A stretch of 64,000 bases of DNA from a virus: IMG/VR virus record IMGVR_UViG_3300031772_002739, positions 9,466-73,465 of that record, one strand, 5' to 3'. Below the pieces are notes generated by a model. The model was given only the letters and a program-made list of their open reading frames with translations. It did not search any database and was not told where the DNA came from. Each line of letters starts with the position of its first letter. Position 1 is the first letter of the stretch. Positions 257-43,375 of this stretch are shown here, one piece after another. Made by a program: the position numbers and the translations under genes.

Positions 257-763
257 ATGCAATCTGATCATAATAGGACAGTGTACGTTGATATGGATGG
301 AGTCGTTTCTGATTTTAGTTCACATTTTCAACATATCACAGGAACGACCACAGGTCAACAATGGGATGACAACGAACTGTGGGCGAGGATCAACGCACAC
401 GGAAAAGAAAAGTTTTTTGCGGAAATGCCTTGGGTTCCTGGGTCAAAAGAAATGTGGAACTTCATAACTGACAACTTTTTGAATGTAAAAATATTGAGTG
501 CTCTTGGAAGGAGCGATAAAGTTGATGGTGGTAAAACTGCAAAAGGAAAGTTGGCTTGGTTGAGAAAAACCATACCATCATTGAAAGAAACGGATATTTT
601 ACTCGTTCCTAACAAACATGCTAAAAAACATTATGCTAAACCTAGTGATATATTAATCGATGACACCGAAGGTAATATTAAAGACTGGGAAAGTAAAGGC
701 GGTATAGGAATACTTTTTAAAACTCCAAAAGATACAATAATAAAATTGAGAGAATATGTATGA
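257..763 (+). CDS. HAD-family 5'(3')-deoxyribonucleotidase-like protein
   Basis: DMDGVVSDF (DxDxV motif I), ILSA motif II, GKLAW, ILIDD motif IV. Confidence 0.85.
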   Translation: MQSDHNRTVYVDMDGVVSDFSSHFQHITGTTTGQQWDDNELWARINAHGKEKFFAEMPWVPGSKEMWNFITDNFLNVKILSALGRSDKVDGGKTAKGKLAWLRKTIPSLKETDILLVPNKHAKKHYAKPSDILIDDTEGNIKDWESKGGIGILFKTPKDTIIKLREYV

Positions 764-1224
764 ATAAAAAAACAGAATTAAAAAACACAATTAAACAACT
801 TATTAAAGAGATTCTAAGTGAACAATCATATAAAGTTGGCGGAAGATCTTACCGAACATTTCAAGATTCTCCACAAGTGACACAAAATCACGATCCGGAA
901 GTTACTGAAAACGGAAACTACGAAGAAGCAGATGAACTTCAAATTATCAAAAATATGGCTAGTATAGTTGAAAAGGTCAAAACGAAAACCGATAATCATT
1001 TTGAGTTGGTAAAAGCTATTAAACAGATTGAAGAACTTGTTGATTCTCTTTTGGATTTACATAAATCTCTTCCAATGTTCAAATCAGGAGAAGTAGCAGA
1101 AGTGGCTCCTCCTGGATGGGAAAAGACGGTTAAGGGTATGAAGAAACATAAAGGTGATATAGAAAATCCCTGGGCATTAGCATGGTCTATGAAAAATAAA
1201 GGAGACAAACCAAGTAAATCATAA
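760..1224 (+). CDS. hypothetical virion-associated protein
   Basis: N-terminal LKNTIKQLIKEILSE leader-like helix; C-terminal APPGWEKTVK..NPWALAW motif; ATGA overlap with upstream gene. Confidence 0.6.
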   Translation: MNKKTELKNTIKQLIKEILSEQSYKVGGRSYRTFQDSPQVTQNHDPEVTENGNYEEADELQIIKNMASIVEKVKTKTDNHFELVKAIKQIEELVDSLLDLHKSLPMFKSGEVAEVAPPGWEKTVKGMKKHKGDIENPWALAWSMKNKGDKPSKS

Positions 1225-1920
1225 ATGAAACTTCGGGTCTACAATGATACGTTAAATCCAGACCTTTGGGATGAGAATAAAAAACTTAAACCTGAGATTG
1301 GTAGTGTATTGTCAAAAGTATCTACGGACTTCTATAAATCAACCGAATTGAGGGGAGAAATTATAGACATTTTATTTTTAGGATCGTCAGCTAATTATAA
1401 TTGGAACCCCAATAGTGATATAGACCTTCATATACTTATTGATGTCACTCAGGAAAAGATGCATCCAACTCATACTCGAAAGTTTTTAGATGTGTTGGCG
1501 TTCAAGTGGAATACTCAACATGATATACGGATTCGGGGAAATAAAGTTGAGGTATACATACAAGATATAGGAGAAACCAACAATTCTATCGGAATATATT
1601 CATTAATGAACAATGCTTGGTTAAGAGAACCATCAAAAGAACACGTTGAGTTGGATAAAGAACAGATTAAACGAAAATTTAAAATTCTCAAACATAAAAT
1701 CAATCAGATAATAGAAACCGAAGATCCTGAAAAATTGAAGGGTGTAATGAAAGATATACGGAATTTTAGACAATCAGGATTGGATAAAACTGGAGAATTT
1801 AGTACGGAAAATGTGGTATTCAAAGCTTTAAGACACTCGGGATTGTTGACAAAGTTGAAGGATTCCATCAACAATTTTTATGATAAACAGGTTTCTATTA
1901 AAGATGATATATCCGTGTGA
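1225..1920 (+). CDS. Pol-beta superfamily nucleotidyltransferase
   Basis: GSSANYNW..SDIDLH (GS-x-DxD) plus VEVYIQ third acidic residue. Confidence 0.8.
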   Translation: MKLRVYNDTLNPDLWDENKKLKPEIGSVLSKVSTDFYKSTELRGEIIDILFLGSSANYNWNPNSDIDLHILIDVTQEKMHPTHTRKFLDVLAFKWNTQHDIRIRGNKVEVYIQDIGETNNSIGIYSLMNNAWLREPSKEHVELDKEQIKRKFKILKHKINQIIETEDPEKLKGVMKDIRNFRQSGLDKTGEFSTENVVFKALRHSGLLTKLKDSINNFYDKQVSIKDDISV

Positions 1921-3389
1921 TTATTACTCCAAATCCATTTGGTGTGACCACAATCCCAAATTCTATCAAACCCGTTGTTTTTCATATTTTCCCATTCTGA
2001 TAATGAATCGTCATATTTCGGTAATATGAATTTTAGTTTGTGTTTTTGAAATGACATTCGATTTTTAACACCTTTATATTTATCAGTAATATAATAATAA
2101 TTTGGTACTGTGTTTCTATCAAATTTCATCCCCATATTAATATAGACATTTCCGTTAAAATATCTACGATCACTATAACTAACAATAGATTTTGGATTGT
2201 GAGTTTTTACAAAATGTTGAAATAATTTGCTTGCACCTCCAATGGTGGTATAATTAAGTTTATTACAAAAACGTGAAATTTCCCACTCTACGGTTTTGTC
2301 AAATCTTGATGTTTTTCTAAATGTCATTACGGATACTAATTCATTGTCATGGTATAATCCCAATTTTATTGTTGATTTATCTTCACCTTGAATATGAGAT
2401 TTATTTAAAAATGTATTTTTGTCTTTAGTGGATATTGTTCTTATTTCACATGTTCTAGCAAAAATTTTGTTTGGTCGATATCCAAGTATAGAATTTATGA
2501 TCGATTTTACAATTTCTGTTTTTTCAATCCATTCGTTTTCTAAAATATGAATTAATCTTACTCCATGAAACAAACAATTATTGGTTTTATTAAGATGATA
2601 ATTTTTTTGAATTCCTCCACCTACGTTGCTGTGCCAATAAAGACCATTTATTTCAAATGCAATTTTTTTGAATGGTATATAAAAATCTAATTCTTTTCCA
2701 TTTAAAATAACACGATCACGTCTTTTAATTTCTATATTTTTTGGAACTATAGACGACAAGAATTCAAAGAAAGAACGTTCTAATTCAAGTCTACGATCAG
2801 GATGACATTTATTACAGTAAATGTTAGAAAGATGATATACTGAATGTTCAAATTCATTACCACATATATCGCATTTAAACTTATACAAATTTTTAAAATG
2901 ATATCCTATATATTCGTTTCTTTCAGATAAAAAAGTAATATTCCATTCTTTACATAGATTTTTAATATATTTATAATGTCGATCCATTATTTGTTCGTTT
3001 ACTTTTTGTATAACATCTGTAGTATTACGAATATTATTTACTCCATATCGGTTTAAACATGTTTGTTTTATTTGTTCATAGTTGTTATAATTTTCGTTTC
3101 CATAACGTTTCTTTTTAGTATTTTTACTTTTTTCTATGAATTTTTTTGATTGTAAAGCATGTTCGACACCATGTTTATTCATCATTGATTTTTTAAAATT
3201 TTCTACAACATTCTGTGTTTTCATGGGATGATCAGTTCCATAATTTTTTTGATAAGTAGATTTTTGACTTTTTTTCATTTTATCAATGACTTCTGGATTG
3301 TGTTGAGCACATGTTTTAGAACATGAAACTTGATTGTTTCGTTTGGTTCTAAATTCATTTTTACAAGTTGGACAAATTTTTAATATCAT
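1878..3389 (-). mobile_element. homing endonuclease-like protein (YG repeats + PD-(D/E)xK-like nuclease + GNAT-like C-terminus)
   Basis: CxxC motifs; KNYGTDH/KHGVEH/KRYGNEN/RYGVNN repeats; ELDFYIP..IAFEINGLYWHS; WEISRFC..GGASKLF..SYSDRRY; antisense to neighbours; likely start MILKICP at 3389. Confidence 0.75.
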
Positions 3390-3416
3390 ATGTTTATAGT
3401 TCAAATGTCGTTAATA

Positions 3417-4111: not shown

Positions 4112-4195
4112 AAAGTGACTGATATGAAAAATATTAATTCATCGTTAATTTTGGTTGATATTTATAAATGGTAAATCCTATATTTATTTGAGTGT

Positions 4196-5002
4196 ATGAT
4201 AAAATTAAAAGACATATTACAAGAAGCCTGTGAAAAAGCTCTTGCAAGAACGGTGCCTATAACTAAAGAAAATTTTGATCGTATGTTGCCGTCGTGTAGT
4301 GATGCGGTGGATGCAAATAAACAAGGATACGTAATTTATAGAGGATTAGAAAAAATCATACCATCCTTATACGCATCGGTGAACCCAAGTGAATATTATA
4401 GGTATTCAATGAATACAACAAATTTTTATACCGCACTCATAGACGTATTACCTTCTTGGGTTGATTATCCAAAACGAAGTCGTAGTATTATATGTTCTAC
4501 ATCGATGGGATCTGCTGGATGCTTCGGTAACACTATATATCAAGTATTCCCCCAAAATGGAGCGTCAATAGGTATATGTCCGAAATCAGATTTTTGGGGT
4601 TCTTTTAAAATAGTTAAAAATAGATTAAAATATGCTAAGGATATGGATTTATTCAATTACTGTATGGAAAGTTTTATTAGACATGTTTTAAACATAAAAT
4701 TTTCTTCATCCGATCTTACGCCGTCGGGCATCATTAACATACTTAAACAAATGGATGACGTTATGAATAATAAAAAAGATGAAATATACACAGCAGATGA
4801 ATACGATGAGAATATATGGAATGACGTTAAACAAAGGTGGAAAGTTTCCTGGATGCATTATTTTGATGAATTATTGGATCCAGAAAATAATGAATTTATG
4901 GTGATGCCAATTAAAAATTTTAATGTTACAGAAAAAAATGTATCAGGAAGAGAAGTGTGGACAGATGCTTATTCGTTGTTGAAAGTTGATGAAAGTCGAT
5001 GA
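4196..5002 (+). CDS. ADP-ribosyltransferase-like paralog 1 with MIKLKDILQE leader
   Basis: IYRG, YPKRSRSIICSTS..A..FG, REVW. Confidence 0.6.
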   Translation: MIKLKDILQEACEKALARTVPITKENFDRMLPSCSDAVDANKQGYVIYRGLEKIIPSLYASVNPSEYYRYSMNTTNFYTALIDVLPSWVDYPKRSRSIICSTSMGSAGCFGNTIYQVFPQNGASIGICPKSDFWGSFKIVKNRLKYAKDMDLFNYCMESFIRHVLNIKFSSSDLTPSGIINILKQMDDVMNNKKDEIYTADEYDENIWNDVKQRWKVSWMHYFDELLDPENNEFMVMPIKNFNVTEKNVSGREVWTDAYSLLKVDESR

Positions 5003-5054
5003 ATCAACGTTGATGTAAATTCGGTTGAACCACCATATCGTTAATAAAAATAGT

Positions 5055-5948
5055 ATGATCAAGTTGAAAAATATATTAGAAACATCTCAACCTTATAGTA
5101 AGAACATATCCGAATTAAGTGTTGGAATGGCTTCCTTACATGCGAATACAACTTTTAAAAACTCTTTTGATTTATATAAACAAGATTCAAGAGTTTTGTA
5201 TAGAGGAATAAGTGATAAATATCGTGGAAATTATTATTATGTGAATCCTCGGACCGCGGCTAGAATATCAAAAGACAGTAATAATCTTTATGTAGCTTTG
5301 ATGGATGCGTTACCTTCATGGAACGGATATCCGAAACGAAGTAGAAGTATTATTGTGGGAACGTCGGAATCTGTGGCTGAAGATTACGGAGATATATTTT
5401 TAGTATTTTTAAAATATAACGCTAACGTGGCTGTTTGTTCAGAAGACGATTTATGGAAAGGCATGCCTTATTTAATGAGAAAAACTAACGTCAACGGGTT
5501 AGATACTTATATGATGGGTTTAAATGAGTTGTTGATGAGTGTTAGTAGATATGATGATAAAATACCTGATATAGAAACTAAAACTTATTCGGAAAACAAC
5601 ATAGAAGAATTTTTTCAAGGTATGATATATCTTACAAAGGAAGTGTTAGAAAAGTCTATTAGTGATAGACTGGTTTGGAGCGCCGCCGCAAGGATATCGA
5701 AAAATATGCTTTTAAGTTCTTCCGATGCAAAAAATGGTTGGAGGAATTATTTTAATGATCTTTTTGATCCTGTTAATAATGGAATATCGTTATCATCTGT
5801 ATCAGAACTTCCATATGATGAAAAACATGAATGTTGGTCAGATAGTGATGCATTGTTGGTAAAGGATGAAGATCAAGCGGTAAGAATTTTATACAAATAC
5901 AAACCGCCCGATCCTAATCAACAGACTTTAGATTTTGGAAATGTATGA
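5055..5948 (+). CDS. ADP-ribosyltransferase-like paralog 2 with MIKLKNILE leader
   Basis: LYRG, YPKRSRSIIVGTS..A..YG, HECW; start moved to ATG 5055 to match the shared leader. Confidence 0.6.
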   Translation: MIKLKNILETSQPYSKNISELSVGMASLHANTTFKNSFDLYKQDSRVLYRGISDKYRGNYYYVNPRTAARISKDSNNLYVALMDALPSWNGYPKRSRSIIVGTSESVAEDYGDIFLVFLKYNANVAVCSEDDLWKGMPYLMRKTNVNGLDTYMMGLNELLMSVSRYDDKIPDIETKTYSENNIEEFFQGMIYLTKEVLEKSISDRLVWSAAARISKNMLLSSSDAKNGWRNYFNDLFDPVNNGISLSSVSELPYDEKHECWSDSDALLVKDEDQAVRILYKYKPPDPNQQTLDFGNV

Positions 5949-6799
5949 TCAAGTTAAAAAACATAGTCGAAGAATTTTTGAGATCGTCACCGGAGGGAGA
6001 AAGACGTAGGACGATTGATTTAGATCAAGCTGTTTCTTTGGCAAAAGATTATAGTGAATCGATAGAGATAGGCGGTAAAGGCCGGTTGTATAGGGGGGTA
6101 AGAGGCGCCGATCAACGTTATTATTATATAGATCCGTCCAGTTCACCAATGAGATATTCAAGAGATGTAAACAACATTTACATGGCTCTTATGGATACTT
6201 TACCGGCGTGGAGTGGATTTCCAAAAAGAAGTCATAGTATTATAGTTTCTACAGATTATACAGATGCTAATAGCTATGGTGCTTTGTATGTAGTGTTTTT
6301 GAAAAATGAATCGAAAATAGCTTCTGCTAGTTCCAAAGATATTATTTCGTATGCGGGAATGCCATATCTTTATGATAGACTGAACGTGGATTTAGAAGGT
6401 TATATGTATAGATTGGAAAAACTGTTTAACACTGGAAAAGAGTTAGGATGGTATATGCCTACGACAGGAAAACATGATTATACCTACAAAAATATAGAAG
6501 ATTTTTACAACGAAATGAGCGATTTAACTGTGGAACGGTTGAAAATTCTTCAAACTAAGTTTCAGAACTACGTTAAGATAACTAATGTGATAGATGATAT
6601 GTTGAAACATCCTGATCCAGAAAACGGATGGAAAAATTATTTTAATGAATTATTAAGTCCAACAAAAAATGGTATAACTTTAGAAACGATATCATCTATA
6701 AAATACAATGATGGTAGAGAATGTTGGACAGAATTTCCTGCTATACTTGTCAGACAAACTTTTTTGGGTGGATTTATTGATGCTTATAATAATGTATGA
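5945..6799 (+). CDS. ADP-ribosyltransferase-like paralog 3 with MIKLKNIVEE leader
   Basis: LYRG, FPKRSHSIIVSTD..A..YG, RECW. Confidence 0.6.
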   Translation: MIKLKNIVEEFLRSSPEGERRRTIDLDQAVSLAKDYSESIEIGGKGRLYRGVRGADQRYYYIDPSSSPMRYSRDVNNIYMALMDTLPAWSGFPKRSHSIIVSTDYTDANSYGALYVVFLKNESKIASASSKDIISYAGMPYLYDRLNVDLEGYMYRLEKLFNTGKELGWYMPTTGKHDYTYKNIEDFYNEMSDLTVERLKILQTKFQNYVKITNVIDDMLKHPDPENGWKNYFNELLSPTKNGITLETISSIKYNDGRECWTEFPAILVRQTFLGGFIDAYNNV

Positions 6800-7632
6800 T
6801 CAAGTTAAAAAATATATTGAATGAAATCAGAAGGGTGCCTGTTAATATAAACAGCTCTTTAGCTTTTATGAGATCCAAATGTTCTTTAGCCGTTGGTCAC
6901 GCTAGAGAGGGAAGAGTTGTTTATCGTGGTGTTGAGACTGCCACAAAACCAGCATATTATCTAGATCCTTCAAAAGAGTCGAGGACATCGAAAGATACTA
7001 ACAATCTTTATCAGGCTATAATGGCTACGTCTCCAAATTGGGATGGGTATCCAAATAGAGAACAGAGTGTTATGTTTTCACCGATGAAAAGCACAGCAGA
7101 TGAATACGGAGAAGCATATTTTGTGTTTGTTCCAGATGATGCTAATATAGTTATGACAACATTAAGCCATGGAGATTTTTGGCACTCTATGGATAATATT
7201 GAAAAACGAATCACGGCAGACATTCCATCGTTGATGAATATTATTAAAGGAATAAGTAACTATTCAAATATAAATCCCGATTTAAATTTTGAATTCCCCA
7301 ATGTAGTAGAACATGTTTTTACATCATCTGATGTTAATAAGTTCTACGAGGAAATGAAAAAGTTTACTAAAGAAAAAATTGAATATTTAATTCAAGTTAA
7401 AAAACCTTGGCCACATGCTAAACCGTTTTACTTGGATATGTTGAAACATTATGATGCCGAAAACGGATGGAGAAACTATTTCAATGATTTGTTTGATCCT
7501 CAAAAGAATAAAATAAAGTTGGGTGGAGTTAACGACATCCCATATAGAAAAGATGAAGAATGTTGGACGGATTCTCCTGTATTGTTGTTGTCTTGTGGTT
7601 TGAATGTAAATAAAATTTTGAACGATTTATAA
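6796..7632 (+). CDS. ADP-ribosyltransferase-like paralog 4 with MIKLKNILNE leader
   Basis: VYRG, YPNREQSVMFSP..A..YG, EECW. Confidence 0.55.
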   Translation: MIKLKNILNEIRRVPVNINSSLAFMRSKCSLAVGHAREGRVVYRGVETATKPAYYLDPSKESRTSKDTNNLYQAIMATSPNWDGYPNREQSVMFSPMKSTADEYGEAYFVFVPDDANIVMTTLSHGDFWHSMDNIEKRITADIPSLMNIIKGISNYSNINPDLNFEFPNVVEHVFTSSDVNKFYEEMKKFTKEKIEYLIQVKKPWPHAKPFYLDMLKHYDAENGWRNYFNDLFDPQKNKIKLGGVNDIPYRKDEECWTDSPVLLLSCGLNVNKILNDL

Positions 7633-7636
7633 ATGT

Positions 7637-8377
7637 ATGATTAAATTAAAGAATATATTAGAATCTTTATCAGAACACCCCCTTACCGAAAGTGTGTTTG
7701 ATAAAGGGTTATTTAAGGCTGTATTTTTTTCAGGCATCCCAGGTGCTGGTAAAAGTTATGTCATTAACTCTATTACTGATGGTCAAATCCAACCCCGCAT
7801 TGTAAACTTTGATAAATATTCAGAGTTTTTGGCTAAAAAATATAATTTGCCAGACGCTGGCGATCAAGATTTTCCTTTTGTTGATCAGGCAAAAACAATG
7901 ACGATATCCCAACTTTCTGGATATGTTAATGGGTTACTTCCACTTTTTATTGACACCACCAGTAATAAAGCCAATAGAACGATGTTAAGAGATGGAGTAT
8001 TAAAATCATTTGGGTATGATACGGGAATGGTGTGGATTAATACTCCATTGGATGTGGCGTTAGACAGAATCAAACAAAGAGATAGATCGGTCTCAGATGA
8101 TTTCGTGGTATCTGTTCATCGTTCATTGGAAGAAAATATAAAATATTATAAAACTCAGTTTTCATTTTTTATTGAAGTAAAAAACGGCGCAGGAGAATTG
8201 ACTGATGAAGTTATTAGAGACGCCTATAAAACTGCTTCATCATTCTTTAGAGAAGACATACAAAATCCAATAGGTAAGAGAAATTATAAAAAGGCTTTTG
8301 ACACTACAGGATATTTGGTTCCTCACGTTTACAAATCGATAAGTGATATAAAAGTGAAATTAAGTAATTGGTATTGA
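7637..8377 (+). CDS. P-loop kinase (AAA_33/zeta-toxin-like) with MIKLKNILE leader
   Basis: KAVFFSGIPGAGKS Walker A; FIDTT; ALDRIKQRDR lid motif. Confidence 0.75.
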   Translation: MIKLKNILESLSEHPLTESVFDKGLFKAVFFSGIPGAGKSYVINSITDGQIQPRIVNFDKYSEFLAKKYNLPDAGDQDFPFVDQAKTMTISQLSGYVNGLLPLFIDTTSNKANRTMLRDGVLKSFGYDTGMVWINTPLDVALDRIKQRDRSVSDDFVVSVHRSLEENIKYYKTQFSFFIEVKNGAGELTDEVIRDAYKTASSFFREDIQNPIGKRNYKKAFDTTGYLVPHVYKSISDIKVKLSNWY

Positions 8378-8390: not shown

Positions 8391-9323
8391 ATGAAAGTCG
8401 TGGGAATTTACAGCGGGAGATTCCAGCCCGCACATAGAGGACATTTGGGAGTTTACAACCAACTGAAACAGATTTCAGCTGATGATACTTTTGTGGTGAC
8501 TTCTGATAAGGTAGAAATTCCTAAATCCCCCCTCAACTTTGCCGAAAAACAACAAATATGGGCAAGACATGGTGTTCCATCCTCTCATGTGGTCAAAGTT
8601 AAAAATCCATATAATCCTTTAGAATTAGTTCAGGGGTTTTCCAAAGAAACCGCGGCGCTGGTATATGCCTTGGGGGATCGGGATGCTGAAAGATTTTCTG
8701 CTAATAAAAAAGTTGAAAATAATAAAGTAATATGGACTAAAAAAGCTGGAGAACCATCATATTTTCAACCATATTTAGGAAATGAGAATAATCTTCAACC
8801 ACTTGATAAACATGGTTATATCATGATTGTTGGCGATGTAAAGATCGATGGGAAACCCATCTCCGGAACAAAAGTAAGAGAAATGTTGGGGTCTAACAAA
8901 TATAATGATGAACAAAAGAAAACATTTTTTCAATGGGTTTTTGGGTGGTTTGATATCAGTTTGTTTGATTTATTAAAAGAAAAATTTACCCCGTTTCAAG
9001 ATGATCAAGTAGAAAAACTCAAAGAAGTTATTGTAAAAATAGTTAATGAATTAGACGGATCTATAGGAACAATACCCGTTTCTTCTATACCAAGTGGGTT
9101 GCCAGCCGGAGATTCGATAGATCCAACTCAAGACGTGGTTGAAAAAACACCAGAAGAAGAACGTAAGGAACGGGAGTTAGCTCGTAAAAAATATGATGCT
9201 GCTGCTAAGAATTTGGAGTTCTTAAGAACCAAAGCTAAATATATATCCAAGGATAAAGATCAAAATATCAGAGATAGAAAAGATAAAGAAAAAGAAATAA
9301 ATCTTCTAAAAAAGAGCATATAA
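8391..9323 (+). CDS. HxGH cytidylyltransferase/NMNAT-like nucleotidyltransferase
   Basis: YSGRFQPAHRGH; ISGTKVR motif. Confidence 0.8.
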   Translation: MKVVGIYSGRFQPAHRGHLGVYNQLKQISADDTFVVTSDKVEIPKSPLNFAEKQQIWARHGVPSSHVVKVKNPYNPLELVQGFSKETAALVYALGDRDAERFSANKKVENNKVIWTKKAGEPSYFQPYLGNENNLQPLDKHGYIMIVGDVKIDGKPISGTKVREMLGSNKYNDEQKKTFFQWVFGWFDISLFDLLKEKFTPFQDDQVEKLKEVIVKIVNELDGSIGTIPVSSIPSGLPAGDSIDPTQDVVEKTPEEERKERELARKKYDAAAKNLEFLRTKAKYISKDKDQNIRDRKDKEKEINLLKKSI

Positions 9324-15378: not shown

Positions 15379-15678
15379 ATGAAACGATACGAAAATATAT
15401 TAAAAGAAAAAAGATTTGATGGACAAAGAGTATATAAAACTACAAGATACCCAAATATATTGCCAAGGACCGAAGATATTATTTATATCTCTAACGACGG
15501 AGATTATTTAGATAGTTTATCGTATAAGTTTTACGGAGACCCAACTTTGTGGTGGATTGTCGCTTTAGCAAATAATTTGGGGCAGGGAAAAATGTCTGTA
15601 GAACCAGGTCTTCAATTAAGAATACCTGTTAATATAAACGAAATATTAAGCGATTATAGTGCGTTAAACACAGAATAA
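15379..15678 (+). CDS. LysM-type baseplate wedge protein (gp53-like)
   Basis: GDYLDSLSYKFYGDPTLWWIVALAN..GLQLRIP. Confidence 0.8.
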   Translation: MKRYENILKEKRFDGQRVYKTTRYPNILPRTEDIIYISNDGDYLDSLSYKFYGDPTLWWIVALANNLGQGKMSVEPGLQLRIPVNINEILSDYSALNTE

Positions 15679-18331: not shown

Positions 18332-19678
18332 ATGATTGAAACCAAAGAAGACTATACTAGTTTTATAAATTCCACTGTGGATCATAGTTTGATTTTGCAT
18401 TTGGTTCTAGATTCTTCTTATATCCATCCGACAATTGATAATCCGTGTGTTGTGTTAATTAGAGATGTTATTTCTAAAAAAACGTATTGTATTTCTTTTG
18501 GTCATGAAGATTTGTTGGTAGTAGTTAACAAAGAAATGTTTATAAAATTCCTCAACGATCATAAACCACATAAATGGGCTTTTGATATGAAGTCGTTTAT
18601 TCAACATTTTTTAATAAATAATATTTATGATGCTAATCTGTTGATATTTTTATATAAAAACAAAATGGTTGAATTAGAAAGGTTTGAAACTTCAGTTCAC
18701 CAGTTTTTTAAACGGCAATACCCACAATCTAAATGTGTAAATAAATACATACCATTGATGAAACATATTGACACTTTTGATAAAATGTGTGAAGAGTTTT
18801 TAAAACACATTTCTGGTTGTGAGTGTGATATGGGGTTTAAGAAAGAAAATGAAGTAATTGTTAAAACGCTTTCACAAATCGAATCCAACGGAATTTGTGT
18901 AGATGAGAATTTGTTCGGTAGATTTTTTGATGCTCCTGTTTATGACGGCAAAGTGTATAGTAAATATAATATCTACACCCCCACAGGCCGCCCAAGTAAT
19001 CATTTTGATAAGGTGAACTACGCTGCGTTGAAAAAGGATGGTGGGAGTAGAAATTGTTTTATTTCAAGATTTGGATTGGATGGTAAAATGGTTTTAGTTG
19101 ATTATTCTGCTTTTCATCCACGTATTATTTGTTATTTGACCGATTTTGATATTGCTCCTGAAATCAATATTTACGAATATTTAGCTCAACTTTATTTTCA
19201 AAAAGAAGAAATTAACGATCAAGATTTAGATGATGCTAAAATTTTGACTTTTAAACAACTTTATGGTTGGGTGGAAGAGAAATATGAACATATTAAATAC
19301 TTTAAAAACTTAAAAGATTTTATAAATAGATATTGGCAAGATTTTATAAAAGACGGGTTTATAAAAACTCCATTATTTAAACGAATTATGATTAAAGATC
19401 ATGTTTCAGGAGCGAATCCAAGTAAGTTATTTAATTATGTATTACAGGCGACTGAAACCGAGTTGGGTGTAGGTATTTTACGGGAAATAAATACATATTT
19501 AAAGGGAAGACCAACCCTGCCTGTTCTGTATACCTACGATTCCATTCTTTTTGACTTTCATGTGTCAGATGGGGAACAAGTATTATCAGACATAATAAAA
19601 ATAATGACTTTGAATAATAAGTTTCCCGTTAAAGCTTATTCTGGAAAATCGTATGGTAATATGAATAGAATTTATTGA
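18332..19678 (+). CDS. compact family A DNA polymerase
   Basis: TPTGRPS, VDYSAFHPR (motif A), AKILTFKQLYG (motif B), YTYDSILFD (motif C). Confidence 0.8.
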   Translation: MIETKEDYTSFINSTVDHSLILHLVLDSSYIHPTIDNPCVVLIRDVISKKTYCISFGHEDLLVVVNKEMFIKFLNDHKPHKWAFDMKSFIQHFLINNIYDANLLIFLYKNKMVELERFETSVHQFFKRQYPQSKCVNKYIPLMKHIDTFDKMCEEFLKHISGCECDMGFKKENEVIVKTLSQIESNGICVDENLFGRFFDAPVYDGKVYSKYNIYTPTGRPSNHFDKVNYAALKKDGGSRNCFISRFGLDGKMVLVDYSAFHPRIICYLTDFDIAPEINIYEYLAQLYFQKEEINDQDLDDAKILTFKQLYGWVEEKYEHIKYFKNLKDFINRYWQDFIKDGFIKTPLFKRIMIKDHVSGANPSKLFNYVLQATETELGVGILREINTYLKGRPTLPVLYTYDSILFDFHVSDGEQVLSDIIKIMTLNNKFPVKAYSGKSYGNMNRIY

Positions 19679-30809: not shown

Positions 30810-31598
30810 ATGTCTATCGAAGGTTATTTCGATCCAACTAAATTTATTATAAAAGAAATAGATAAATCTTCTGCTGAAGATATGATCGTAAGGCATCATT
30901 ACACACATAAATGGTCATTATGTCAAGTGGCTTATGGTATTTTTTATATTTCAGAAGAAGAATCGGATTTTTTTGATGCTAAAGAAGAAATCCTTATAGG
31001 ATGCATGGTTTTTGGTCATCCTGTCGGTAGAAGTGCTGCTGAATCGGTTTCTGATATCATCAAAATTGATGAAGTTTTTGAGTTGACTAGATTGGTTTGT
31101 TTGGATGGTGAAGAATATGGAAAGAACTTAGAAAGTTATTGTTTGACTTATGCTTTAAAGTTGTTGAAAAAATCCTTTCCGAATATCAAGGCTCTCATTA
31201 CTTATGCGGATGGAGAACAAGGTCATAAAGGAACGATATATCAAGCCTGTGGGTTTTACTATCAGGGGAACTCTTCTCTAGCTTTAATGCCTAATTATTC
31301 TATTTCTTTGATTGGACCTCCAAATTATAACTGGATGCATTCAAGAACGGTATCTGCCACATATGGTTCTCATAATGTTGAATATTTAAAAAAACGAATA
31401 GGCCATACATTTTGGAGGAAACGAGAGTCTACTAAACATCGATATGTGTGTTTTTTATGTAATAAAATAGAAAAAAAGAAAATTCTATCTAATATCAAAC
31501 ATCTCTTCTACGATTATCCCAAAGAAACCCATCATATAGATGAAATTCAAGAGATTGTTGTAAATGAAAATGATAAAGAAAATCTCTTTTTTGGATGA
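30810..31598 (+). CDS. Mom-like GNAT-fold DNA modification protein
   Basis: HHYTH, ELTRL, ES, ITYAD..QGH.GTIYQA..F.Y.G, KHRYV. Confidence 0.75.
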   Translation: MSIEGYFDPTKFIIKEIDKSSAEDMIVRHHYTHKWSLCQVAYGIFYISEEESDFFDAKEEILIGCMVFGHPVGRSAAESVSDIIKIDEVFELTRLVCLDGEEYGKNLESYCLTYALKLLKKSFPNIKALITYADGEQGHKGTIYQACGFYYQGNSSLALMPNYSISLIGPPNYNWMHSRTVSATYGSHNVEYLKKRIGHTFWRKRESTKHRYVCFLCNKIEKKKILSNIKHLFYDYPKETHHIDEIQEIVVNENDKENLFFG

Positions 31599-31655
31599 TT
31601 AACCATATTTATATTTGGTAAATTATATCGATATCGATTTATCACGGAGATTAAT

Positions 31656-32483
31656 ATGAATAAAGATTTTTTGAAAAATTTAGTAAAAGAAACACTAACG
31701 GAGATGAAAGCTGAGAAGACTGCTGATCGTCCTGCCAAGAAACAACGAATTAGAGAATCTCTAAAAAGTGTGATCGGTCAAATATTGAAAGAATACATCG
31801 CTAGTGTCAATAAACCTAAAAAATCAAAAGACGACATAGAGAAGGAACGAAAGGGATATGCTAAGGATGGTAATGTTCATTTAGATAAAACAAACGAACA
31901 GCTCAAGGATGAAATGGAAAAAATATCAAACGATATCGATAAGAGCATTGAAGTTAAGTGGGATGACCACGGAGATTTGGTTGTTGATGCTAAAGAATTA
32001 TTCAAGGTTCGTATTCATCCAATGTGGGATAACAATTTTTACATTGAATCGTGGCCAAGATTGCAGGATCGTGTAGTTGCCGTTGGATTGGATTGGGAGC
32101 AGGTTAAGAATTTTGTTAAAGCCAATTTCAAACATGATAGTGAAGATATTGAAAATACTAAAGTGGACCAAGCTAAGAATAAAGCGATGGATCATCTTGA
32201 AGACGAATCTGGCAAGGGAGAAGTTCCAAAACAAGATTATGAATCCCGAACAACCATAAAGAAGGTTGGTGACACCAAGAAAGACGATAAGGATTATAAC
32301 AAACCAGATGTCGAAGATGATGACGATCTTCCTGATCAACCAATGAAACCGGTTGATGTAGACGATATCAAAAAACAGAGTGATCATAAAGAGCATAAAG
32401 AAGAGCCTCAAAAACACAAGGATGATAAACGTCATATAAAGAAAATGAAGATCGGTAGAGGACGAAAACGTGCTTTGAATTAA
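31656..32483 (+). CDS. highly charged hypothetical (virion-associated?) protein
   Basis: LKNLVKETLTE leader-like start; late motif at 31605; GGAG RBS. Confidence 0.6.
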   Translation: MNKDFLKNLVKETLTEMKAEKTADRPAKKQRIRESLKSVIGQILKEYIASVNKPKKSKDDIEKERKGYAKDGNVHLDKTNEQLKDEMEKISNDIDKSIEVKWDDHGDLVVDAKELFKVRIHPMWDNNFYIESWPRLQDRVVAVGLDWEQVKNFVKANFKHDSEDIENTKVDQAKNKAMDHLEDESGKGEVPKQDYESRTTIKKVGDTKKDDKDYNKPDVEDDDDLPDQPMKPVDVDDIKKQSDHKEHKEEPQKHKDDKRHIKKMKIGRGRKRALN

Positions 32484-32484
32484 T

Positions 32485-32754
32485 ATGAAAAAATCCGATC
32501 TTAAAAAATTGATTGAAGAAGTTAATAAAGAGGTGGAAAGAAACCCTCTATATGTTAAAGGATTTCGTCAAGGTGAAAAAGATGGATATGTCAAAGAAAA
32601 GGTTGACGTAAAAGATCAACCTGATATTTATCAGTTGGGATACAAGAGAGGTTATCAAGCTGGATTTTGGAGATTATACAGCGAAAAGTTGAACAAAGGA
32701 TTAGCTGCCGCTGGAGAGTTCATGGGGGGTTTTGTAAACTTAAATCGTAGGTAA
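32485..32754 (+). CDS. small hypothetical protein
   Basis: MKKSDLKKLIEE leader; YxxGY/GF repeats. Confidence 0.6.
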   Translation: MKKSDLKKLIEEVNKEVERNPLYVKGFRQGEKDGYVKEKVDVKDQPDIYQLGYKRGYQAGFWRLYSEKLNKGLAAAGEFMGGFVNLNRR

Positions 32755-33167: not shown

Positions 33168-33205
33168 AGTTGGAATATACTTATATCTGTAATAGAAAGT
33201 ATATT

Positions 33206-33970
33206 ATGATGGTGATTTATAAAACTATAAACCTAATAAATGAAAAATATTATGTTGGAAAACAACAAAGATATACAAAGTCATATTTAGGTTCTGGTTC
33301 AGCACTAAAATCTGCCATAAAGAAATATGGAAGAAGAAATTTTAGGAAAGAAATCTTAGAAATTTGTAAATCAGAATCCGATTTGGAAAAAAAAGAATTG
33401 GAGTGGTTGGATAAACTAAACGCTATAAAGGATAAAAACTCGTATAATTTAGTAAGAGAAACATCGCCCAATAAACATAGAAGTTATACAGACCCAAAAT
33501 ATAGAAAACGATTGAGTAATTCTATTAAAAAAATATTTAACACTCCAGAATCACATATTCGGTTAAGCAAACAAAATAGAGGAAAAAACAACCCGATGTA
33601 TGGTAAAAAAAGATCGAAAGAGTTTAAAAAAGTGGTTAGCAAAATCCATTCGGGAAAAGTAGTATCTGACGAAACCAGAGAAAAAATACGAAATAGTCGA
33701 ATAGGAAGAAAAGCATCGTCTGAAACAAAAAACCGGATGAAAGAAAGCCAGCGCCATCGTTGGGATACTATAAAAGTAAAAATGATATTAAACAACAATC
33801 ACATGTGGAGTTTCGACAATAGATATGATTTTATATCTTTTATAAAAGATTATAATAATTCTATACCAAAAGGAAAAGTAAGAGGGTCAGGTCCTAAAAG
33901 AATTAATTGGAAACGAGCAATAAAAAATGAATATGACTTCATAAAGGTACATAAAAATGAAAAAATATAA
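33206..33970 (+). mobile_element. GIY-YIG homing endonuclease with NUMOD3-like repeats
   Basis: VIYKTINLINEKYYVG, YLGSG, NF.KEILE, SYN; GKNNPMYGK and S.ET.EK repeats. Confidence 0.85.
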
Positions 33971-38043: not shown

Positions 38044-39210
38044 ATGAGTGAATATTTTGAAGAATTTTTTGACGGCCATGCTTTTGATTTTCAAGTGGAA
38101 AAACAAAAAGTTATAGATAATCTAAATTGGCTTAAATCTTTATCTGTTGAGGAATTTACTTTTTATAAGAAATGGGAAGAAATCCAAGAGTATGGTGACT
38201 TGATTGGCGATTCCAAACAAGTAAAAGCTCAGTTGTGGAGTCCATCAAATATAGACGATCCAGTTCAGACAATAAAAGAAATAGAAACACTTTCTCCAAG
38301 AGTGGTATACGTCGATACTCCTGAACTGCAAAAATCATGGTTAAATCTCCGTGTATTTTGCCATTCTGCTGATTACAATCAAGTTCCAGGAAGATATAGA
38401 AAATTTCTAATAATGGATGGAGATAGGTATCTTGGATTTCTCGCTGTGGGTAGTGATATTATCGCTACAGATGCTAGAGATAGTTGGATTGGATGGAATA
38501 AAGAAACCAGAGAAGGCGGCAAACTTACTTTTTCTGCTGTAGGTAGTACAATAGCTCCAACACAACCATTAGGATACAATTTTTTGGGTGGCAAACTATG
38601 CGCTCTATTGGTCACTTCACAAGTGGTCAGAGATAACTGGAAAAAATCATATGGGAATACTTTAACAGGAATGACCACCACTAGCCTATATGGATCTTTA
38701 TCACAATATAACAATTTAAAATGGTGGCACAAATGCGGTCATTCAAAAGGCAAGGTTCTTATAAAACCAGATCAAAGATTTTATAAAATATGGCACGATT
38801 GGTTGAAGACAAATCGTTCCGAAGAATATATTAAAGCTATGACTCAGAAAGAAGGAGTTTCTGGCCCTGTTACTGGAGCCAAACTTCGTGTGTTGGATAT
38901 GATATGTGATGTAGTGGGCATAAAAGTTTCTGATTATCAACACGGATATTCAAGAGGAATATTTTATTCTTGTTTTTATAATAATACAAAAGAATTTTTA
39001 CGTGGAGAAATTAAAGAAAATGATTTAATAATAAAAGATATAATGAACGAAGAATGTATGTTAAGTTGGTGGAAAAATAAAGCCGTCGAAAGATATAAAA
39101 AACTTATTTTGGAAAAAAGAATAAAAATCGAAAAATTGTTTTATAATAAAATGTTTGGAATGAAATATACCAAAGCTAAAGAAATTTATTTTTCAGAAGT
39201 GGGTAGATAA
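38044..39210 (+). CDS. DUF4338 / DruA-like protein
   Basis: PGR, RDSWIGW, PTQPLGYNFLGGKL, TTSLYG..SQY. Confidence 0.7.
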   Translation: MSEYFEEFFDGHAFDFQVEKQKVIDNLNWLKSLSVEEFTFYKKWEEIQEYGDLIGDSKQVKAQLWSPSNIDDPVQTIKEIETLSPRVVYVDTPELQKSWLNLRVFCHSADYNQVPGRYRKFLIMDGDRYLGFLAVGSDIIATDARDSWIGWNKETREGGKLTFSAVGSTIAPTQPLGYNFLGGKLCALLVTSQVVRDNWKKSYGNTLTGMTTTSLYGSLSQYNNLKWWHKCGHSKGKVLIKPDQRFYKIWHDWLKTNRSEEYIKAMTQKEGVSGPVTGAKLRVLDMICDVVGIKVSDYQHGYSRGIFYSCFYNNTKEFLRGEIKENDLIIKDIMNEECMLSWWKNKAVERYKKLILEKRIKIEKLFYNKMFGMKYTKAKEIYFSEVGR

Positions 39211-40355: not shown

Positions 40356-41069
40356 ATGAAAAAAACAAAAATTATAGGAATTGGAGGGCTATCCAGGTCT
40401 GGAAAAGATACATTTGTAAAAGTAGCACATAATATTTTGAAACAGAATGGGTATGACACCTGCCATCTTGCTTTTGCTACAGCATTAAAGAATGAAATCC
40501 AACAGATGTTTAGAAATAACAATTTTAATTTAGATATTTGGACTGATGATACTGAAAGGAAGAAACGGCTCCGTGACCTTCTCGTATGGTGGGGTTGTAT
40601 GAGAAGAGAGTTAGGTGACGGTAATTATTGGATAGATAGAATTCAAGAAAGATTTGAGTTGATACAGAGAACTTACTCTCAAGAAGTATTGGATAAATCT
40701 GTATTTTTTGTTTCTGACGTTCGTTTCCCCAATGAATCTAAGTGGATTCACGAAAAATGGGGCGGTTGGTTTATTCATGTAAAGAAATATTCTATGCGAT
40801 ATGATAACGTGCAAACGTTTGATGATGGAAATGTAGAACATTCAGACGCAATGCATCGAATGTATGATTCTGCACCCAACGAAGAAGAGGCTAAACAAGA
40901 TCCTCTCATACAGGAACACGCTGATGATAAATTAGAGTTGGAAAATGTCATTGAAAGAGAAACTAGATTAGGTAATAAAATAACTGTCGCTGACTTGCCG
41001 AATAATACTTATCTATTGAATGAGGTAAGGTTATGTCTGGCGAAGGTTCCTCTTTTAAAAATTAAATAA
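40356..41069 (+). CDS. deoxynucleoside monophosphate kinase
   Basis: IIGIGGLSRSGKDT, FATALK, SDVRFPNE. Confidence 0.75.
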   Translation: MKKTKIIGIGGLSRSGKDTFVKVAHNILKQNGYDTCHLAFATALKNEIQQMFRNNNFNLDIWTDDTERKKRLRDLLVWWGCMRRELGDGNYWIDRIQERFELIQRTYSQEVLDKSVFFVSDVRFPNESKWIHEKWGGWFIHVKKYSMRYDNVQTFDDGNVEHSDAMHRMYDSAPNEEEAKQDPLIQEHADDKLELENVIERETRLGNKITVADLPNNTYLLNEVRLCLAKVPLLKIK

Positions 41070-41071
41070 CG

Positions 41072-41269
41072 ATACATAAAATTAAAAGAAAACAAATATC
41101 GGAAAATACTAAAAATTTAATATTGGATCTTTTTTGTAATAAAAAAATTGGTATAGTGAATATTTCTAAAGAATTATCTAAAATCGGAATAAATTACGGA
41201 TCAAAAGCAATTAGAAATTTTCTAATAAGAAATAATGTGTATATAAAACAACAGAGGACAAAACAATGA
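41072..41269 (+). pseudogene. start-less HTH-like remnant, probably the end of a deleted homing endonuclease
   Basis: open frame IHKIKRKQISENTKNLILDLF..GIVNISKEL..GSKAIRNFLIRNNV..* with no ATG; stop overlaps next ATG. Confidence 0.45.
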
Positions 41270-41991
41270 AATTTTTTGATATACAAACCGAGGAGGAATA
41301 TCCGATTTTTTTAGATGAATGTAATAATACTGAAAAAAATAAAAAATTTGCTTTTATTATTAATAAATATCATAGTTATAAAAAATTTAATCCTGGCCCG
41401 ACAAGGCGAATACATTGGTTAATATATGAATCGGAAACGACAAAATTAATAGGAGCAATCGGATTGTCGAGTGCAACAATAGCAATAAAATGTAGAGATG
41501 ATTATATTGGATGGAACAAAGAACAGAGAATAAAAAATTTGGGTATGATAGCTAATAATTCCAGGTTTTGTATAATACCAAATAAATCGATTCTAAAAAA
41601 TATTGGAAGTATGATACTGAAACAATTGTCCATTGTAGGGTCAAAAAGATGGAAAGAAAAGTATGGCGGTATGTTATCTATGATAGAAACTTACGTACAA
41701 ATTGAAAGAAATGATGAATATAATGAACATAAAGAAAGAAACGGATCTGTATACCGAGCATCCAATTGGATCGAAATTGGTCATACATCCGGAAATAGTA
41801 TCCGAAAAGCCCCATTATCAAGTTGGAAAAAAGAATCGGGAATTCGTGGAGAGTTGGCAAGAAACAACCCAAAATTGGCGATGGAACGATATGGGTATGG
41901 GGGAAAGGAATATATAGTATCAAAATCACCAATTAAAATAATGTTCATAAAATCTTTAGTTTGGAATTGGAAAAAAATATTATTATCATAA
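41266..41991 (+). CDS. second DUF4338-like protein
   Basis: HSY, IGAIGLSSA, RDDYIGW, NNSRFCI, ETYV, GSVYRASNW..IG.TSG. Confidence 0.7.
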   Translation: MKFFDIQTEEEYPIFLDECNNTEKNKKFAFIINKYHSYKKFNPGPTRRIHWLIYESETTKLIGAIGLSSATIAIKCRDDYIGWNKEQRIKNLGMIANNSRFCIIPNKSILKNIGSMILKQLSIVGSKRWKEKYGGMLSMIETYVQIERNDEYNEHKERNGSVYRASNWIEIGHTSGNSIRKAPLSSWKKESGIRGELARNNPKLAMERYGYGGKEYIVSKSPIKIMFIKSLVWNWKKILLS

Positions 41992-42010
41992 TTAGTAGAT
42001 ATTTATATTT

Positions 42011-43375
42011 ATGATTCTATTGTCATCCATTATAGAAAAAGTTGATATCCAAAAGGCCGATGTAGTCAAAACAGGATTAGAAAAGAAATATGGGCCTGAT
42101 ATTGGACCAAACACTTTTGGAGTTGAATTAGAGTATGTTCTTCCTCCACAGGAAGAATTTGAAATGGAAGAACATCTTCATGATGTTGTTCGTTCTTTAA
42201 TGTGGAAAGCTAGGAACGACGTTACTGCAAGAGATGATTATATTGATTGGGTTACTGATAAAAGAAGTAATATCAATAGAAGAATAAAATCCAGTGATGA
42301 ATGGGATGATAGTTATGGTCCGATTGATCTGGATACGTGGGAAACTTTTAATCCTGAACCAGAACACGAAGATTATAGTGATGATAAAGAATATGATGAC
42401 GCACATTCTACTTGGGATGATGCTTCATCCGATGTAAAAAAACAATATAGGAATTGGGAATTTGGTGAAAGGTATAATTATACGGAAGAATGGGCCGAAT
42501 ATATGATTGAGGCTGATCGGTGGGAAAGTTATATTGATACATCTGACATTGTAAAATCCACTACAGATATAGAAATTGAAGCGGCTTCCGATTATATACG
42601 AAAATATATACGTGATGGAGTAGTAAACGGAAACGCTACCAATACAGCATGGGGAGTTGGCCTGGATGGTGATCTTATGGAAATTAGAACTCCTCCTCTT
42701 TCTGGAAACGAAGATTCATTTAAAAAAGTAAGAATCGCTTTGAGTTTTTTGAATGACAAGGATACTCACGGAGGAACGTCTGCTCACGTTCATATAGGGG
42801 TTCCGGAAGATTTCGATGTGTTTGATATGATAGCCATGTCAGATTTAGTTGACGAAGAAAAAGTAAAACAAGCTGTAGGTGCAGATCGTCAGTTAGCTAA
42901 ATATGCCGAAACAAATGAGGTTCTTCAAAGAAGTTTGGAAATAGCAATAAGAAAAATATTAACTCAAAATCAAGAAACAAAGCCTGTCAGTGAAGGTAAG
43001 TGGATAATGAGTCATGATACTTTGAAAAAATTTATTTTGTCGGTCATGGATAGATACAAGGGAACAAACATTCTTCCTGTAATGAAAGGAACTCATCTGA
43101 CTATAGAATTTAGATATTTTTCATCCAATGTTAAAGAACACCCGAGTGTATTTGTTCAGTGGATCAAATACTTTTTACTTTTACCAAAAGTAGCCCAAGG
43201 AAGAAATAGGGTAACTTTAAACAAGGACAAAACCATTCCTATAGTTCTCACACGATTACCTGATAATAAAGTAAGGGTGGAGTTCGTTGTTCGTGGAACT
43301 CAACAAAAACCATCACCAATGCCTGGATTGCCTGCCAAAGATATACGAACTAAAAAAGATAAGGATGTTGTATGA
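42011..43375 (+). CDS. putative amidoligase (COOH-NH2 ligase type 2) with leader MILLSSIIE
   Basis: TFGVELE, EIRTPPL, SAHVHIG, RY..N, TIEFRYF; acidic insertion; late motif at 41999. Confidence 0.75.
   Translation: MILLSSIIEKVDIQKADVVKTGLEKKYGPDIGPNTFGVELEYVLPPQEEFEMEEHLHDVVRSLMWKARNDVTARDDYIDWVTDKRSNINRRIKSSDEWDDSYGPIDLDTWETFNPEPEHEDYSDDKEYDDAHSTWDDASSDVKKQYRNWEFGERYNYTEEWAEYMIEADRWESYIDTSDIVKSTTDIEIEAASDYIRKYIRDGVVNGNATNTAWGVGLDGDLMEIRTPPLSGNEDSFKKVRIALSFLNDKDTHGGTSAHVHIGVPEDFDVFDMIAMSDLVDEEKVKQAVGADRQLAKYAETNEVLQRSLEIAIRKILTQNQETKPVSEGKWIMSHDTLKKFILSVMDRYKGTNILPVMKGTHLTIEFRYFSSNVKEHPSVFVQWIKYFLLLPKVAQGRNRVTLNKDKTIPIVLTRLPDNKVRVEFVVRGTQQKPSPMPGLPAKDIRTKKDKDVV

Follow-up and report, generated by a model that had tools for sequence, protein, structure and literature searches.

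A short N-terminal leader on putative ADP-ribosyltransferase-fold, kinase and amidoligase-like proteins of an uncultured T4-related phage, a probable head-targeting propeptide

Why should unrelated predicted enzymes of one phage begin with almost the same ten residues? This question is raised by a stretch of 64,000 nucleotides (the window), which covers bases 9466-73465 of the IMG/VR record IMGVR_UViG_3300031772_002739, a single virus record of 73,465 bases. In the window, four diverged paralogs with a putative ADP-ribosyltransferase (ART) fold, a P-loop kinase and a distant relative of the Amidoligase_2 family carry a common leader. In the reading favoured here, to which a probability of about 0.7 is given, this leader would be a propeptide of the type known from phage T4, directing enzymes to the head and being removed by a protease before the enzymes are injected.

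The N-termini of the leader genes, read from the translations, are those given in the preliminary description of this DNA, including the leader on the kinase and its diverged form on the amidoligase relative (Table 1; genes are named by a window coordinate). Five of these genes, the four paralogs and the kinase, stand in tandem with overlapping stop and start codons, and the consensus of their leaders can be written MIKLK[ND]I[LV]xE or MIKLKNILE. In the four paralogs, M1, I2, K3, L4, K5 and I7 are invariant whereas the overall identity is just 27-28%, and the kinase has no sequence relation to them. The Glu is found at position 10 in three of the five tandem leaders and at position 9, as I-L-E, in the two others, while 42011 has I-I-E. 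The leader is about ten residues long and starts at Met1, with an in-frame stop shortly upstream; the start of paralog 2 is an ATG internal to an open reading frame (ORF) listed from a TTG at 5025. On these sequences, the core leader set is far beyond chance. Since leader codons 2-8 differ synonymously among the five genes (ATA/ATC/ATT, AAA/AAG, TTA/TTG, AAT/AAC/GAC), the constraint acts on the peptide, not on the DNA or the mRNA.

Table 1. Leader-bearing and candidate genes of the window, and copies of the promoter-like motif ATATTTATA
Feature	Position	Strand	Remarks
ART-fold paralog 1	4196..5002	+	leader MIKLKDILQE (4196-4225); phrog_12810 match
ART-fold paralog 2	5055..5948	+	leader MIKLKNILET
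ART-fold paralog 3	5945..6799	+	leader MIKLKNIVEE; protein used for structure model
ART-fold paralog 4	6796..7632	+	leader MIKLKNILNE
P-loop kinase (AAA_33/Zeta-like)	7637..8377	+	leader MIKLKNILES; Walker A GIPGAGKS
Amidoligase_2-family relative	42011..43375	+	diverged leader MILLSSIIEK
Lys-rich protein, candidate second-class leader	31656..32483	+	start MNKDFLKNLVKETLTE
89-aa protein	32485..32754	+	start MKKSDLKKLIEE; fits leader pattern
154-aa protein, weak candidate	760..1224	+	start MNKKTELKNTIKQLIKEILSE; Glu at 17 or 21
ATATTTATA motif	4159..4167	+	37 nt ahead of 4196, first of five-gene unit
ATATTTATA motif	42000..42008	+	11 nt ahead of 42011
ATATTTATA motif	31606..31614	+	50 nt ahead of 31656 (unit 31656/32485)
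ATATTTATA motif	238	+	precedes 257, first gene of unit holding 760

The same leader is found on many other proteins. When IMG/VR contigs were scanned for exact matches to DNA encoding M-I-K-[LF]-K-N-I-[LF], at least 115 stretches turned up, of which 80 loci were examined. Among the matches listed, to which the counts of this paragraph apply, 69 of 82 open ORFs of at least 60 residues, which usually start a few codons after an in-frame stop and almost never have an in-frame ATG upstream. Positions 9 and 10 were left free by the pattern: Glu occupies position 10 in 58 of these 69 leaders, while position 9 is K (14), N (12), S (10), L (9) or another residue. In the short ORFs, which resemble a chance background, Glu10 occurs in 1 of 13. 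After removal of the first 12 residues, the mature parts of the 69 proteins form 42 clusters unrelated by BLASTP at E 1e-3, and the leaders are encoded by 58 distinct 30-nucleotide sequences. No Pfam family is found at E≤0.001 for 37 of the 42 cluster representatives. Three pass a curated Pfam cut-off, namely a CCA-adding-type nucleotidyltransferase, a GNAT acetyltransferase and a GDSL-lipase/peptidoglycan-binding/lysozyme protein, the last starting itself with MIKLKNILSR, without the Glu; two others have Pfam rows below the cut-off (DUF5754; Cep57_CLD and Endopep_inhib). These comparisons support the leader as a modular, protein-level tag on unrelated proteins. The internal-protein loci of T4 are described likewise in the available part of PMC3012670, with one conserved tag and hypervariable, mostly orphan cargo.

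The tandem arrangement of the five genes, their ATGA start/stop overlaps and the few upstream bases that they have in common (AATGT) could recall a relic of duplication, or of cassettes swapped at a recombination joint where the genes begin, in which case the shared start would have no function. However, the leader was retained while the paralogs drifted to the identity given above, the kinase and the amidoligase have unrelated folds, and the same residues recur, with free synonymous change, on the 42 unrelated families among the matches listed, so that such a leftover is highly improbable. A start merely retained from a recent duplicate was also considered, and was rejected on the 27-28% identity of the paralogs and on the unrelated cargo.

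The leader is also kept within each cargo family, as measured with the pattern Phi-x-x-Phi-[LIVM]-x0-2-E in residues 1-15 against internal control windows. The profile of the ART-fold paralogs retrieves 3,485 cluster representatives at E≤1e-3, and 2,699 at E≤1e-10, among 1.84 billion. In the best 146 representatives excluding those of the window, of which 144 have a Met start, the leader is present in 96 of 144 against 0-18 of 144 in seven control windows. The Glu is at position 10 in 51 of them and at position 9 in 26, common starts being MIK... and MRL... (e.g., MRLKQYLTE), and E10 is at least 90% conserved in an alignment of 81 ART-like sequences (22-38% identity). For the kinase, the query was limited to residues 20-246 to keep the leader from seeding the search; the leader is present in 32 of the 52 full-length homologs, against 0-6 of 67 in the controls, and some starts are nearly those of T4 itself (MKTFKQFIDE, MTTFKEYLLE). 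In the same way, 18 of 31 amidoligase homologs have the leader, against 0-3 in the controls. Homologs of 42011 (36-42% identity) start with MIKLKDILNEE, MIKLKNILQEE, MIKFKDILKEE, MILLKSILKE or MILLRDLLPE, so that 42011 carries a drifted copy of the tag.

A complete relative of 159.6 kb (contig G002) gives a comparable picture at the scale of a genome: the relaxed rule fits 17 of its 191 ORFs, versus 5.6 expected, and seven of these fits, dispersed over the genome, start with MI[KR]L..[IL]L.E or MIRLKKLLEQ. The strings MIKLKNIL, MIKLKDIL and MIKLKNILxE were not found in the literature searched, where the phrase "capsid targeting sequence" occurs together with metagenomics in only one, unrelated, paper. 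The available part of the paper on Far-T4 phages (PMC4360716) makes no mention of internal proteins, prohead or ADP-ribosylation, and that of a jumbo-phage survey (PMC7824862) makes none of capsid targeting, N-terminal leaders, propeptides or the accessions of the Atu_ph07 array discussed below.

The closest known system is the capsid targeting sequence (CTS) of T4, a ten-residue N-terminal peptide carried by unrelated proteins (IPI, IPII, IPIII and Alt) and removed by the protease gp21. In the T4 record, IPII and IPIII start with MKTYQEFIAE, IPI with MKTFKEF.., gp22 with MLKEQLIAE and gp21 with MNEPQLLIE. According to PMC9026906, a review available in part, gp21 cuts after the Glu of L/I-x-E, and the first ten residues of IPIII suffice to bring IPIII or foreign proteins into the head. 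The same source attributes targeting mainly to residues 4 and 7 and processing to residues 8 and 10, an Asp at position 10 blocking cutting and not targeting. The leader of the window shows the same register, with L4, I7, L/V8 and E10 facing Y4, F7, [LIV] at 8 and E10 of the CTS. Furthermore, one T4 cargo, Alt, is a processed ADP-ribosyltransferase ejected from the head into the host (PMC9026906). The two systems also differ: MIKLKNILxE is not MKTYQEFIAE; the cargo here consists of tandem ART-fold paralogs without a Pfam ART match, a kinase and an amidoligase relative; and the tag recurs with hardly a letter changed in many uncultured contigs. In the giant phages phiKZ, 201phi2-1 and SPN3US, many head-internal proteins likewise undergo cleavage after the Glu of a three-residue motif, carried out by a diverged protease of gp21 type; some of the processed head proteins are ejected into the host (PMC9026906). 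In these phages, however, the motif is S/A-x-E, the capsid lineage is different and the available part of that review describes no single common ten-residue tag.

A suitable protease is present in the relatives. Peptidase_S77 (PF03420), the family of gp21, passes its cut-off in all four long contigs searched that have a MIKLKNIL gene (E 2e-28 to 3e-34), and a gp21-type protease is also found in Atu_ph07 (PMC6102473, Table S3), in Ralstonia phage RsoM2USA and, by annotation, in Microcystis phage Mel-JY01. In the head modules of the tag-bearing contigs, small ORFs with leader-like starts lie between the portal and capsid genes, at the place where the T4 record has the core proteins gp67, gp68, gp21 and gp22. 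For example, a 144-residue protein with the leader MIKLKNILRE (MIKLKNILRETEE) is encoded one small ORF after the protease in contig G001, and other starts in these modules are MNINQLKELIKQVVKEE, MKLTKLLKENEE, MKLNQILQE, MKTPNLKFILE and MKSFLKQIEE; a 929-residue protein starting with MRLKNLLLEAEY is also encoded there. The G001 capsid protein is closest to those of Mel-JY01 (55%), LR756508 (54%), Flavobacterium phage immuto (51%) and Rhodothermus phage RM378 (40%). As a separate observation, a small gene like that of ribosomal protein S21 stands between protease and scaffold in Mel-JY01 (L150 8185-8412; annotated RpsU) and apparently also in the head module of G001 (L130 9910-10089).

The leader could instead be an amphipathic helix for another cellular address, such as the membrane or a replication compartment, or a degradation or translation signal unrelated to virion assembly. 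The peptide is indeed predicted to be helical and amphipathic (helix 4-12 in the model of the 5945 protein). Such an address leaves unexplained the near-invariant Glu at position 9 or 10, as well as the co-occurrence, in four of four contigs, with a Glu-specific prohead protease family, the position of tagged genes in head modules and the virion proteomics presented below; synonymous codon variation argues against a signal at the level of the mRNA. This alternative is considered very unlikely.

Evidence from particles comes from a cultured relative. By tblastn, the paralogs and the kinase are found in Agrobacterium phage Atu_ph07, RsoM2USA, Salicola phage SCTP-2 and LR756508, and the kinase also in Pelagibacter phage HTVC008M and Melnitz phages. 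In Atu_ph07, 11 genes in a tandem row start with M[RK]W.QL.E, MKWNDLNE or MRLFQLLE. The conserved YRG(I/M) motif of the paralogs lies within the first 45 residues of 7 of 13 proteins (gp53-gp57, gp61 and gp62), and tblastn aligned the paralogs of the window to gp54-gp57 and to further places in the record. The last protein of the row, gp53 (778 residues), joins an ART-like N-terminal part to a kinase, with L-K-E at the joint; it is 28% identical to 7637 (E 1e-26), and phrog_12810 models the same ART-kinase fusion. The accessions AUZ94865-AUZ94877 could be mapped to gp53-gp65 through ClpX (AUZ94814.1, gp2) and through matching masses. The virion of Atu_ph07 holds all 13 proteins gp53-gp65, with 3-31 unique peptides and 12-47% coverage each, according to Supplementary Table S5 of Attai et al. 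2018 (PMC6102473, available in part), and the gp21 homolog gp204 is also in the virion (Table S3 of that paper). The homologous array of Atu_ph07 is virion-associated. Moreover, gp53 (87 kDa; L001 10527-12863) is most abundant in gel band 9, where most of the other proteins that peak are of 18-23 kDa (PMC6102473); this, together with the L-K-E at its joint, hints at internal processing of gp53.

The likeness between this array and that of the window thus lies in the tandem homologs, the kinase fusion and the 11 leaders ending in L-x-E, whereas the eight-residue leader M[RK]W.QL.E, the higher copy number and the other host and clade (a 490-kb jumbo phage) set it apart; the available part of PMC6102473 does not speak of paralogs. 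In the other relatives, the starts are MTTFKEYLLE (kinase), MTTFKEYLTE, MNQTFKQFLTE and MRLKQFLME for RsoM2USA, whose paper identified only ten major bands, these genes not being among them, and MRLKKILKE and MKLKNLLSE for the paralogs of LR756508.

A leader that is only a protease-removable propeptide, serving inactivation or timed activation without any role in the head, or one that targets the baseplate or tail, would account for part of these data. Conservation in the leader is highest for the Glu and the [LIV]-x-E rule, and a second conserved L-x-E|S joint precedes the kinase domain. Thus, 7637 has LSE and LTE|S sites between leader and domain, and many kinase homologs (P0213-P0279) have such a joint directly before the P-loop domain (LNE|SVYDKGIFK, here LTE|SVFDKGLFK); the propeptide of the kinase may come off in two cuts. 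A leader-like start is also seen in 15379, the gp25-like baseplate gene. However, residues 1-8 (MIKLKNIL) are conserved far beyond the needs of a cut site, the T4 counterparts of residues 4 and 7 are targeting determinants (PMC9026906, in its available part), tag-bearing small ORFs occur among scaffold, protease and capsid genes, and the Atu_ph07 homologs are in virions. A propeptide without head targeting is thus judged unlikely.

Over the whole contig, the pattern Phi-x-x-Phi-[LIVM]-x-E, with the Glu by residue 14, fits 7 of 76 genes (4196, 5945, 6796, 31656, 32485, 15379 and 55224) versus 1.4 expected from the rate at internal positions, and a variant without the x adds 5055, 7637, 42011, 30073 and 44257. 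The fits of 15379 (gp25-like baseplate) and 55224 (DegT aminotransferase) look like chance. None of the nine annotated replication or nucleotide-metabolism genes of this fragment (257, 18332, 20876, 21843, 23149, 25932, 27387, 39814 and 40356) fits, so that the condition under which the preliminary description would have been refuted, a leader equally frequent on early or replication proteins, does not hold on this fragment. Its extension of the tagged set to four more distant genes holds unevenly: 42011 is well supported through its homologs and 31656 moderately, while 32485 enters by the pattern only and 760 stands weakly.

In 760, the pattern is matched only deeper in the sequence, and its relatives, some of which start with MRIIQILES, share only the C-terminal 45 residues or so with it, which makes it a weak candidate for a leader gene. 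For 32485, there is a single weak relative and no informative homolog. The short forms shown among the 31656 homologs keep FRNxVRECxSExKxE at the N-terminus, and the long forms have an extra N-terminal domain of about 110 residues, the same stretch being kept internally with its Met (P0035, P0036, P0043, P0047 and P0053). Such long forms are as compatible with internal cleavage or a second start as with a leader; the family may have two architectures, or else a site inside the longer protein where translation starts or a protease cuts. Both 31656 and 32485 probably belong to the tagged cargo.

Several genes of the window, including leader genes, are preceded by the motif ATATTTATA, which appears promoter-like from its position. 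It lies in sense orientation 11-50 nucleotides before 257, 4196, 8391, 10516, 30073, 31656, 42011 and 37947 (minus strand), and also 143 nucleotides before an ORF of 1079 residues upstream of the window, taken to be a tail sheath because it begins like the annotated Mel-JY01 sheath. On the plus strand, 10 of 19 copies fall between genes, in a contig made up largely of coding sequence. The preliminary description had placed the leader genes in units downstream of this motif and regarded it as late: the position is borne out, with the right orientation, for each named unit. The motif is the reverse complement of the T4 late consensus, so "late" finds no support in T4 likeness. A T4 late promoter TATAAATA ahead of the leader genes was considered and rejected, the sense orientation being without it and the coding strand bearing its reverse complement. 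The large unassigned tail-region genes among the units headed by the motif fit late expression; the motif also heads a nucleotidase and a nucleotidyltransferase, and both its promoter function and its late timing are putative.

Taken together, these data can be arranged into a scheme in which packaging, cleavage, core binding and injection in the phage of the window would follow T4 by analogy. Because the tag has the build of the T4 signal, the tagged enzymes are probably packed in the head and injected with the DNA. Late in infection, the hydrophobic side of the tag (residues 4, 7 and 8) would anchor the tagged proteins on the scaffolding core of the assembling prohead, and the shell would close around them. 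A gp21-type (Peptidase_S77) prohead protease would then cut after the Glu of [LIV]-x-E, releasing the mature enzymes in the head, from which they would exit with the DNA at the next infection. The cargo would comprise the four diverged ART-fold paralogs, the P-loop kinase and the Amidoligase_2 relative.

The packaging tag proposed in the preliminary description is favoured by its modularity, its CTS-like build, the gp21-type protease of relatives and the Atu_ph07 virion array. Several points weigh against it. Neither head genes nor the Peptidase_S77 (PF03420) protease gave a match across the 73.5-kb record. The [LIV]-x-E rule is short; with 1.4 chance N-terminal fits for 76 genes, 15379 and 55224 do fit it, and the gp25-like baseplate wedge gene 15379-15678 (plus strand) starts with MKRYENILKE although it encodes a tail protein, which could be a coincidence or a hint that the rule extends beyond head proteins. 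The nucleotidyltransferase 8391, which adjoins the kinase, is without leader. The leader of Atu_ph07 differs in sequence, its proteins being only about 29-32% identical to those of the window, and Table S5, as available, does not show N-terminal trimming (PMC6102473). The Atu_ph07 particles were purified only with polyethylene glycol, and a RecA-like protein, a single-stranded DNA-binding protein and ribonucleotide reductase were present at 1-3 peptides (PMC6102473), so that some carry-over in the preparation is possible. Finally, the IMG/VR scan fixed residues 1-8 and its counts come from a sample, and one search was seeded with the leader itself.

What the cargo might do depends on its folds. 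The AlphaFold model of the 5945 protein is confident (predicted local distance difference test, pLDDT, 91.4; predicted template modelling score, pTM, 0.87), and its confident fold begins near residue 21. Since residues 5-14 have pLDDT below 50 within this confident model, the tag would be a loose appendage. Foldseek against the PDB gave nothing at E≤0.001. With VIA-align, Arr came first (Z 6.1, root-mean-square deviation 3.4, 87 aligned), followed by diphtheria toxin (Z 5.5) and BC2332 (Z 5.2); about 30 of 50 rows are of ART fold by title, including PARPs, DarT, Tpt1, exotoxin A, CteC, Scabin and pertussis toxin, every Z being below 8. Across 81 aligned sequences, conservation of R50 (in YRG), S96/S98 and E259 (in E-[VC]-W) is complete or reaches at least 90%, and R95 is also invariant. 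ADP-ribosyltransferases have an R-S-E motif. No Pfam or NCBIfam match to a curated ART family was obtained for the paralogs, a profile of the four against PDB sequences gave only chance-level rows without any ART, and their nearest protein Atlas clusters are unnamed viral proteins only. A divergent ART fold is thus a reading of the model, not a proven membership, and ADP-ribosyl transfer by the paralogs would be a predicted activity.

The two other enzymes are also assigned at a distance. The kinase scores 26.3 bits with AAA_33 (cut-off 27) and 19.4 with Zeta_toxin (cut-off 22.3), and most of its homologs are annotated with PF13671 and/or PF06414. For 42011 itself, Amidoligase_2 (PF12224) gave no match even at E≤1; its homologs P0009 and P0029 score above the 22-bit cut-off, at 32.2 and 28.9 bits, and 5 of 32 homologs are annotated with the family, so that it appears to be an Amidoligase_2 relative reached only through homologs. 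A phmmer search of both proteins against the PDB gave nothing useful. The enzymatic meaning of the kit proposed in the preliminary description, including action of the kinase and of the amidoligase on host proteins, would extend from these family likenesses.

Directly after the tagged kinase, and with its own ATATTTATA motif, lies an HxGH nucleotidyltransferase gene (8391-9323, plus strand; start MKVVGIYSGRFQPAHRGH). Its product matches PF01467 at E 1e-4, and nicotinamide mononucleotide (NMN) adenylyltransferase models match weakly, far under their cut-offs. The adjacency of kinase and nucleotidyltransferase recurs in HTVC008M (L004) and in a further locus (L005). Together with the ART-fold genes, 8391 hints at a set centred on nicotinamide adenine dinucleotide (NAD), as a lead only.

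By its genes, the phage of the window is T4-related. Family scans identified structural genes (a gp19-like tail tube, a T4-type baseplate protein and the gp25-like wedge), replication genes (gp32, UvsX/RecA, 5'-3' exonuclease, DnaB-type helicase and a clamp-loader subunit) and nucleotide-metabolism genes (ribonucleotide reductase and dNMP kinase); a DNA polymerase match at 18332-19678 is partial and weak. The G+C content of the window is about 33%. CheckV estimates the completeness of the record, a 73.5-kb fragment, at 17%, and because a protein identical to the 31656 product sits on a 194.7-kb contig, the genome is far larger than the fragment. The RecA has Mel-JY01 as its nearest cultured relative (51% identity), followed by LR756508, a 484-kb uncultured phage, while megablast of 4196-8377 against cultured phages gave no match. 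The tag-bearing contigs, and the window by its RecA, would be placed near the Far-T4 phages of PMC4360716, as far as the available part of that paper goes.

The scans also found a Mom-family gene and two DruA-like genes, at 30810-31598, 38044-39210 and 41266-41991 (plus strand), which lie beside the tagged amidoligase and may serve together in DNA modification or against host defences. On the minus strand, 44257-63933 is taken up by a nucleotide-sugar cluster of about 20 kb, with six epimerase/dehydratases, two DegT aminotransferases, a B12-binding radical SAM enzyme, a GHMP kinase, split transketolase/E1-like pairs, a cytidylyltransferase and an RmlC-like epimerase; a GIY-YIG endonuclease gene (49461-50246) and a YopX gene lie inside it. 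Two homing endonuclease genes were also seen, one of HNH/DUF7487 type (1878-3404, minus strand) on the opposite strand amid late-looking genes, and one of GIY-YIG/NUMOD3 type (33203-33970, plus strand).

The principle of a head-targeting tag has been known since the work on T4, and the gain here lies in breadth, with a new lineage and new cargo, not in mechanism. Proteins carried in the head act before phage genes are read and are prime candidates for host takeover and counter-defence. If the tag works as in T4, a ten-residue string would be enough to list packaged proteins from sequence, and this list would include a very large unnamed family of ART-like fold, along with orphan families of uncultured phages by the hundreds. 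Loading of foreign proteins into the capsids of this clade could be another use of the tag, as with the T4 CTS (PMC3012670, in its available part). A broader proposal, more doubtful than probable at present, is that MIKLKNILxE and its variants are a clade-wide label for the whole injected proteome of uncultured T4-related (Far-T4-like, huge) phages, with an NAD-centred toolkit as cargo. If this were true, a ready-made toolkit delivered with the DNA would unite the ART-fold family, with its 3,485 clusters at 50% identity, and the kinase with the HxGH nucleotidyltransferase and the amidoligase; it would modify host targets or blunt NAD-depleting defences before phage gene expression, and the label would point to candidate injected effectors in thousands of phages never brought into culture.

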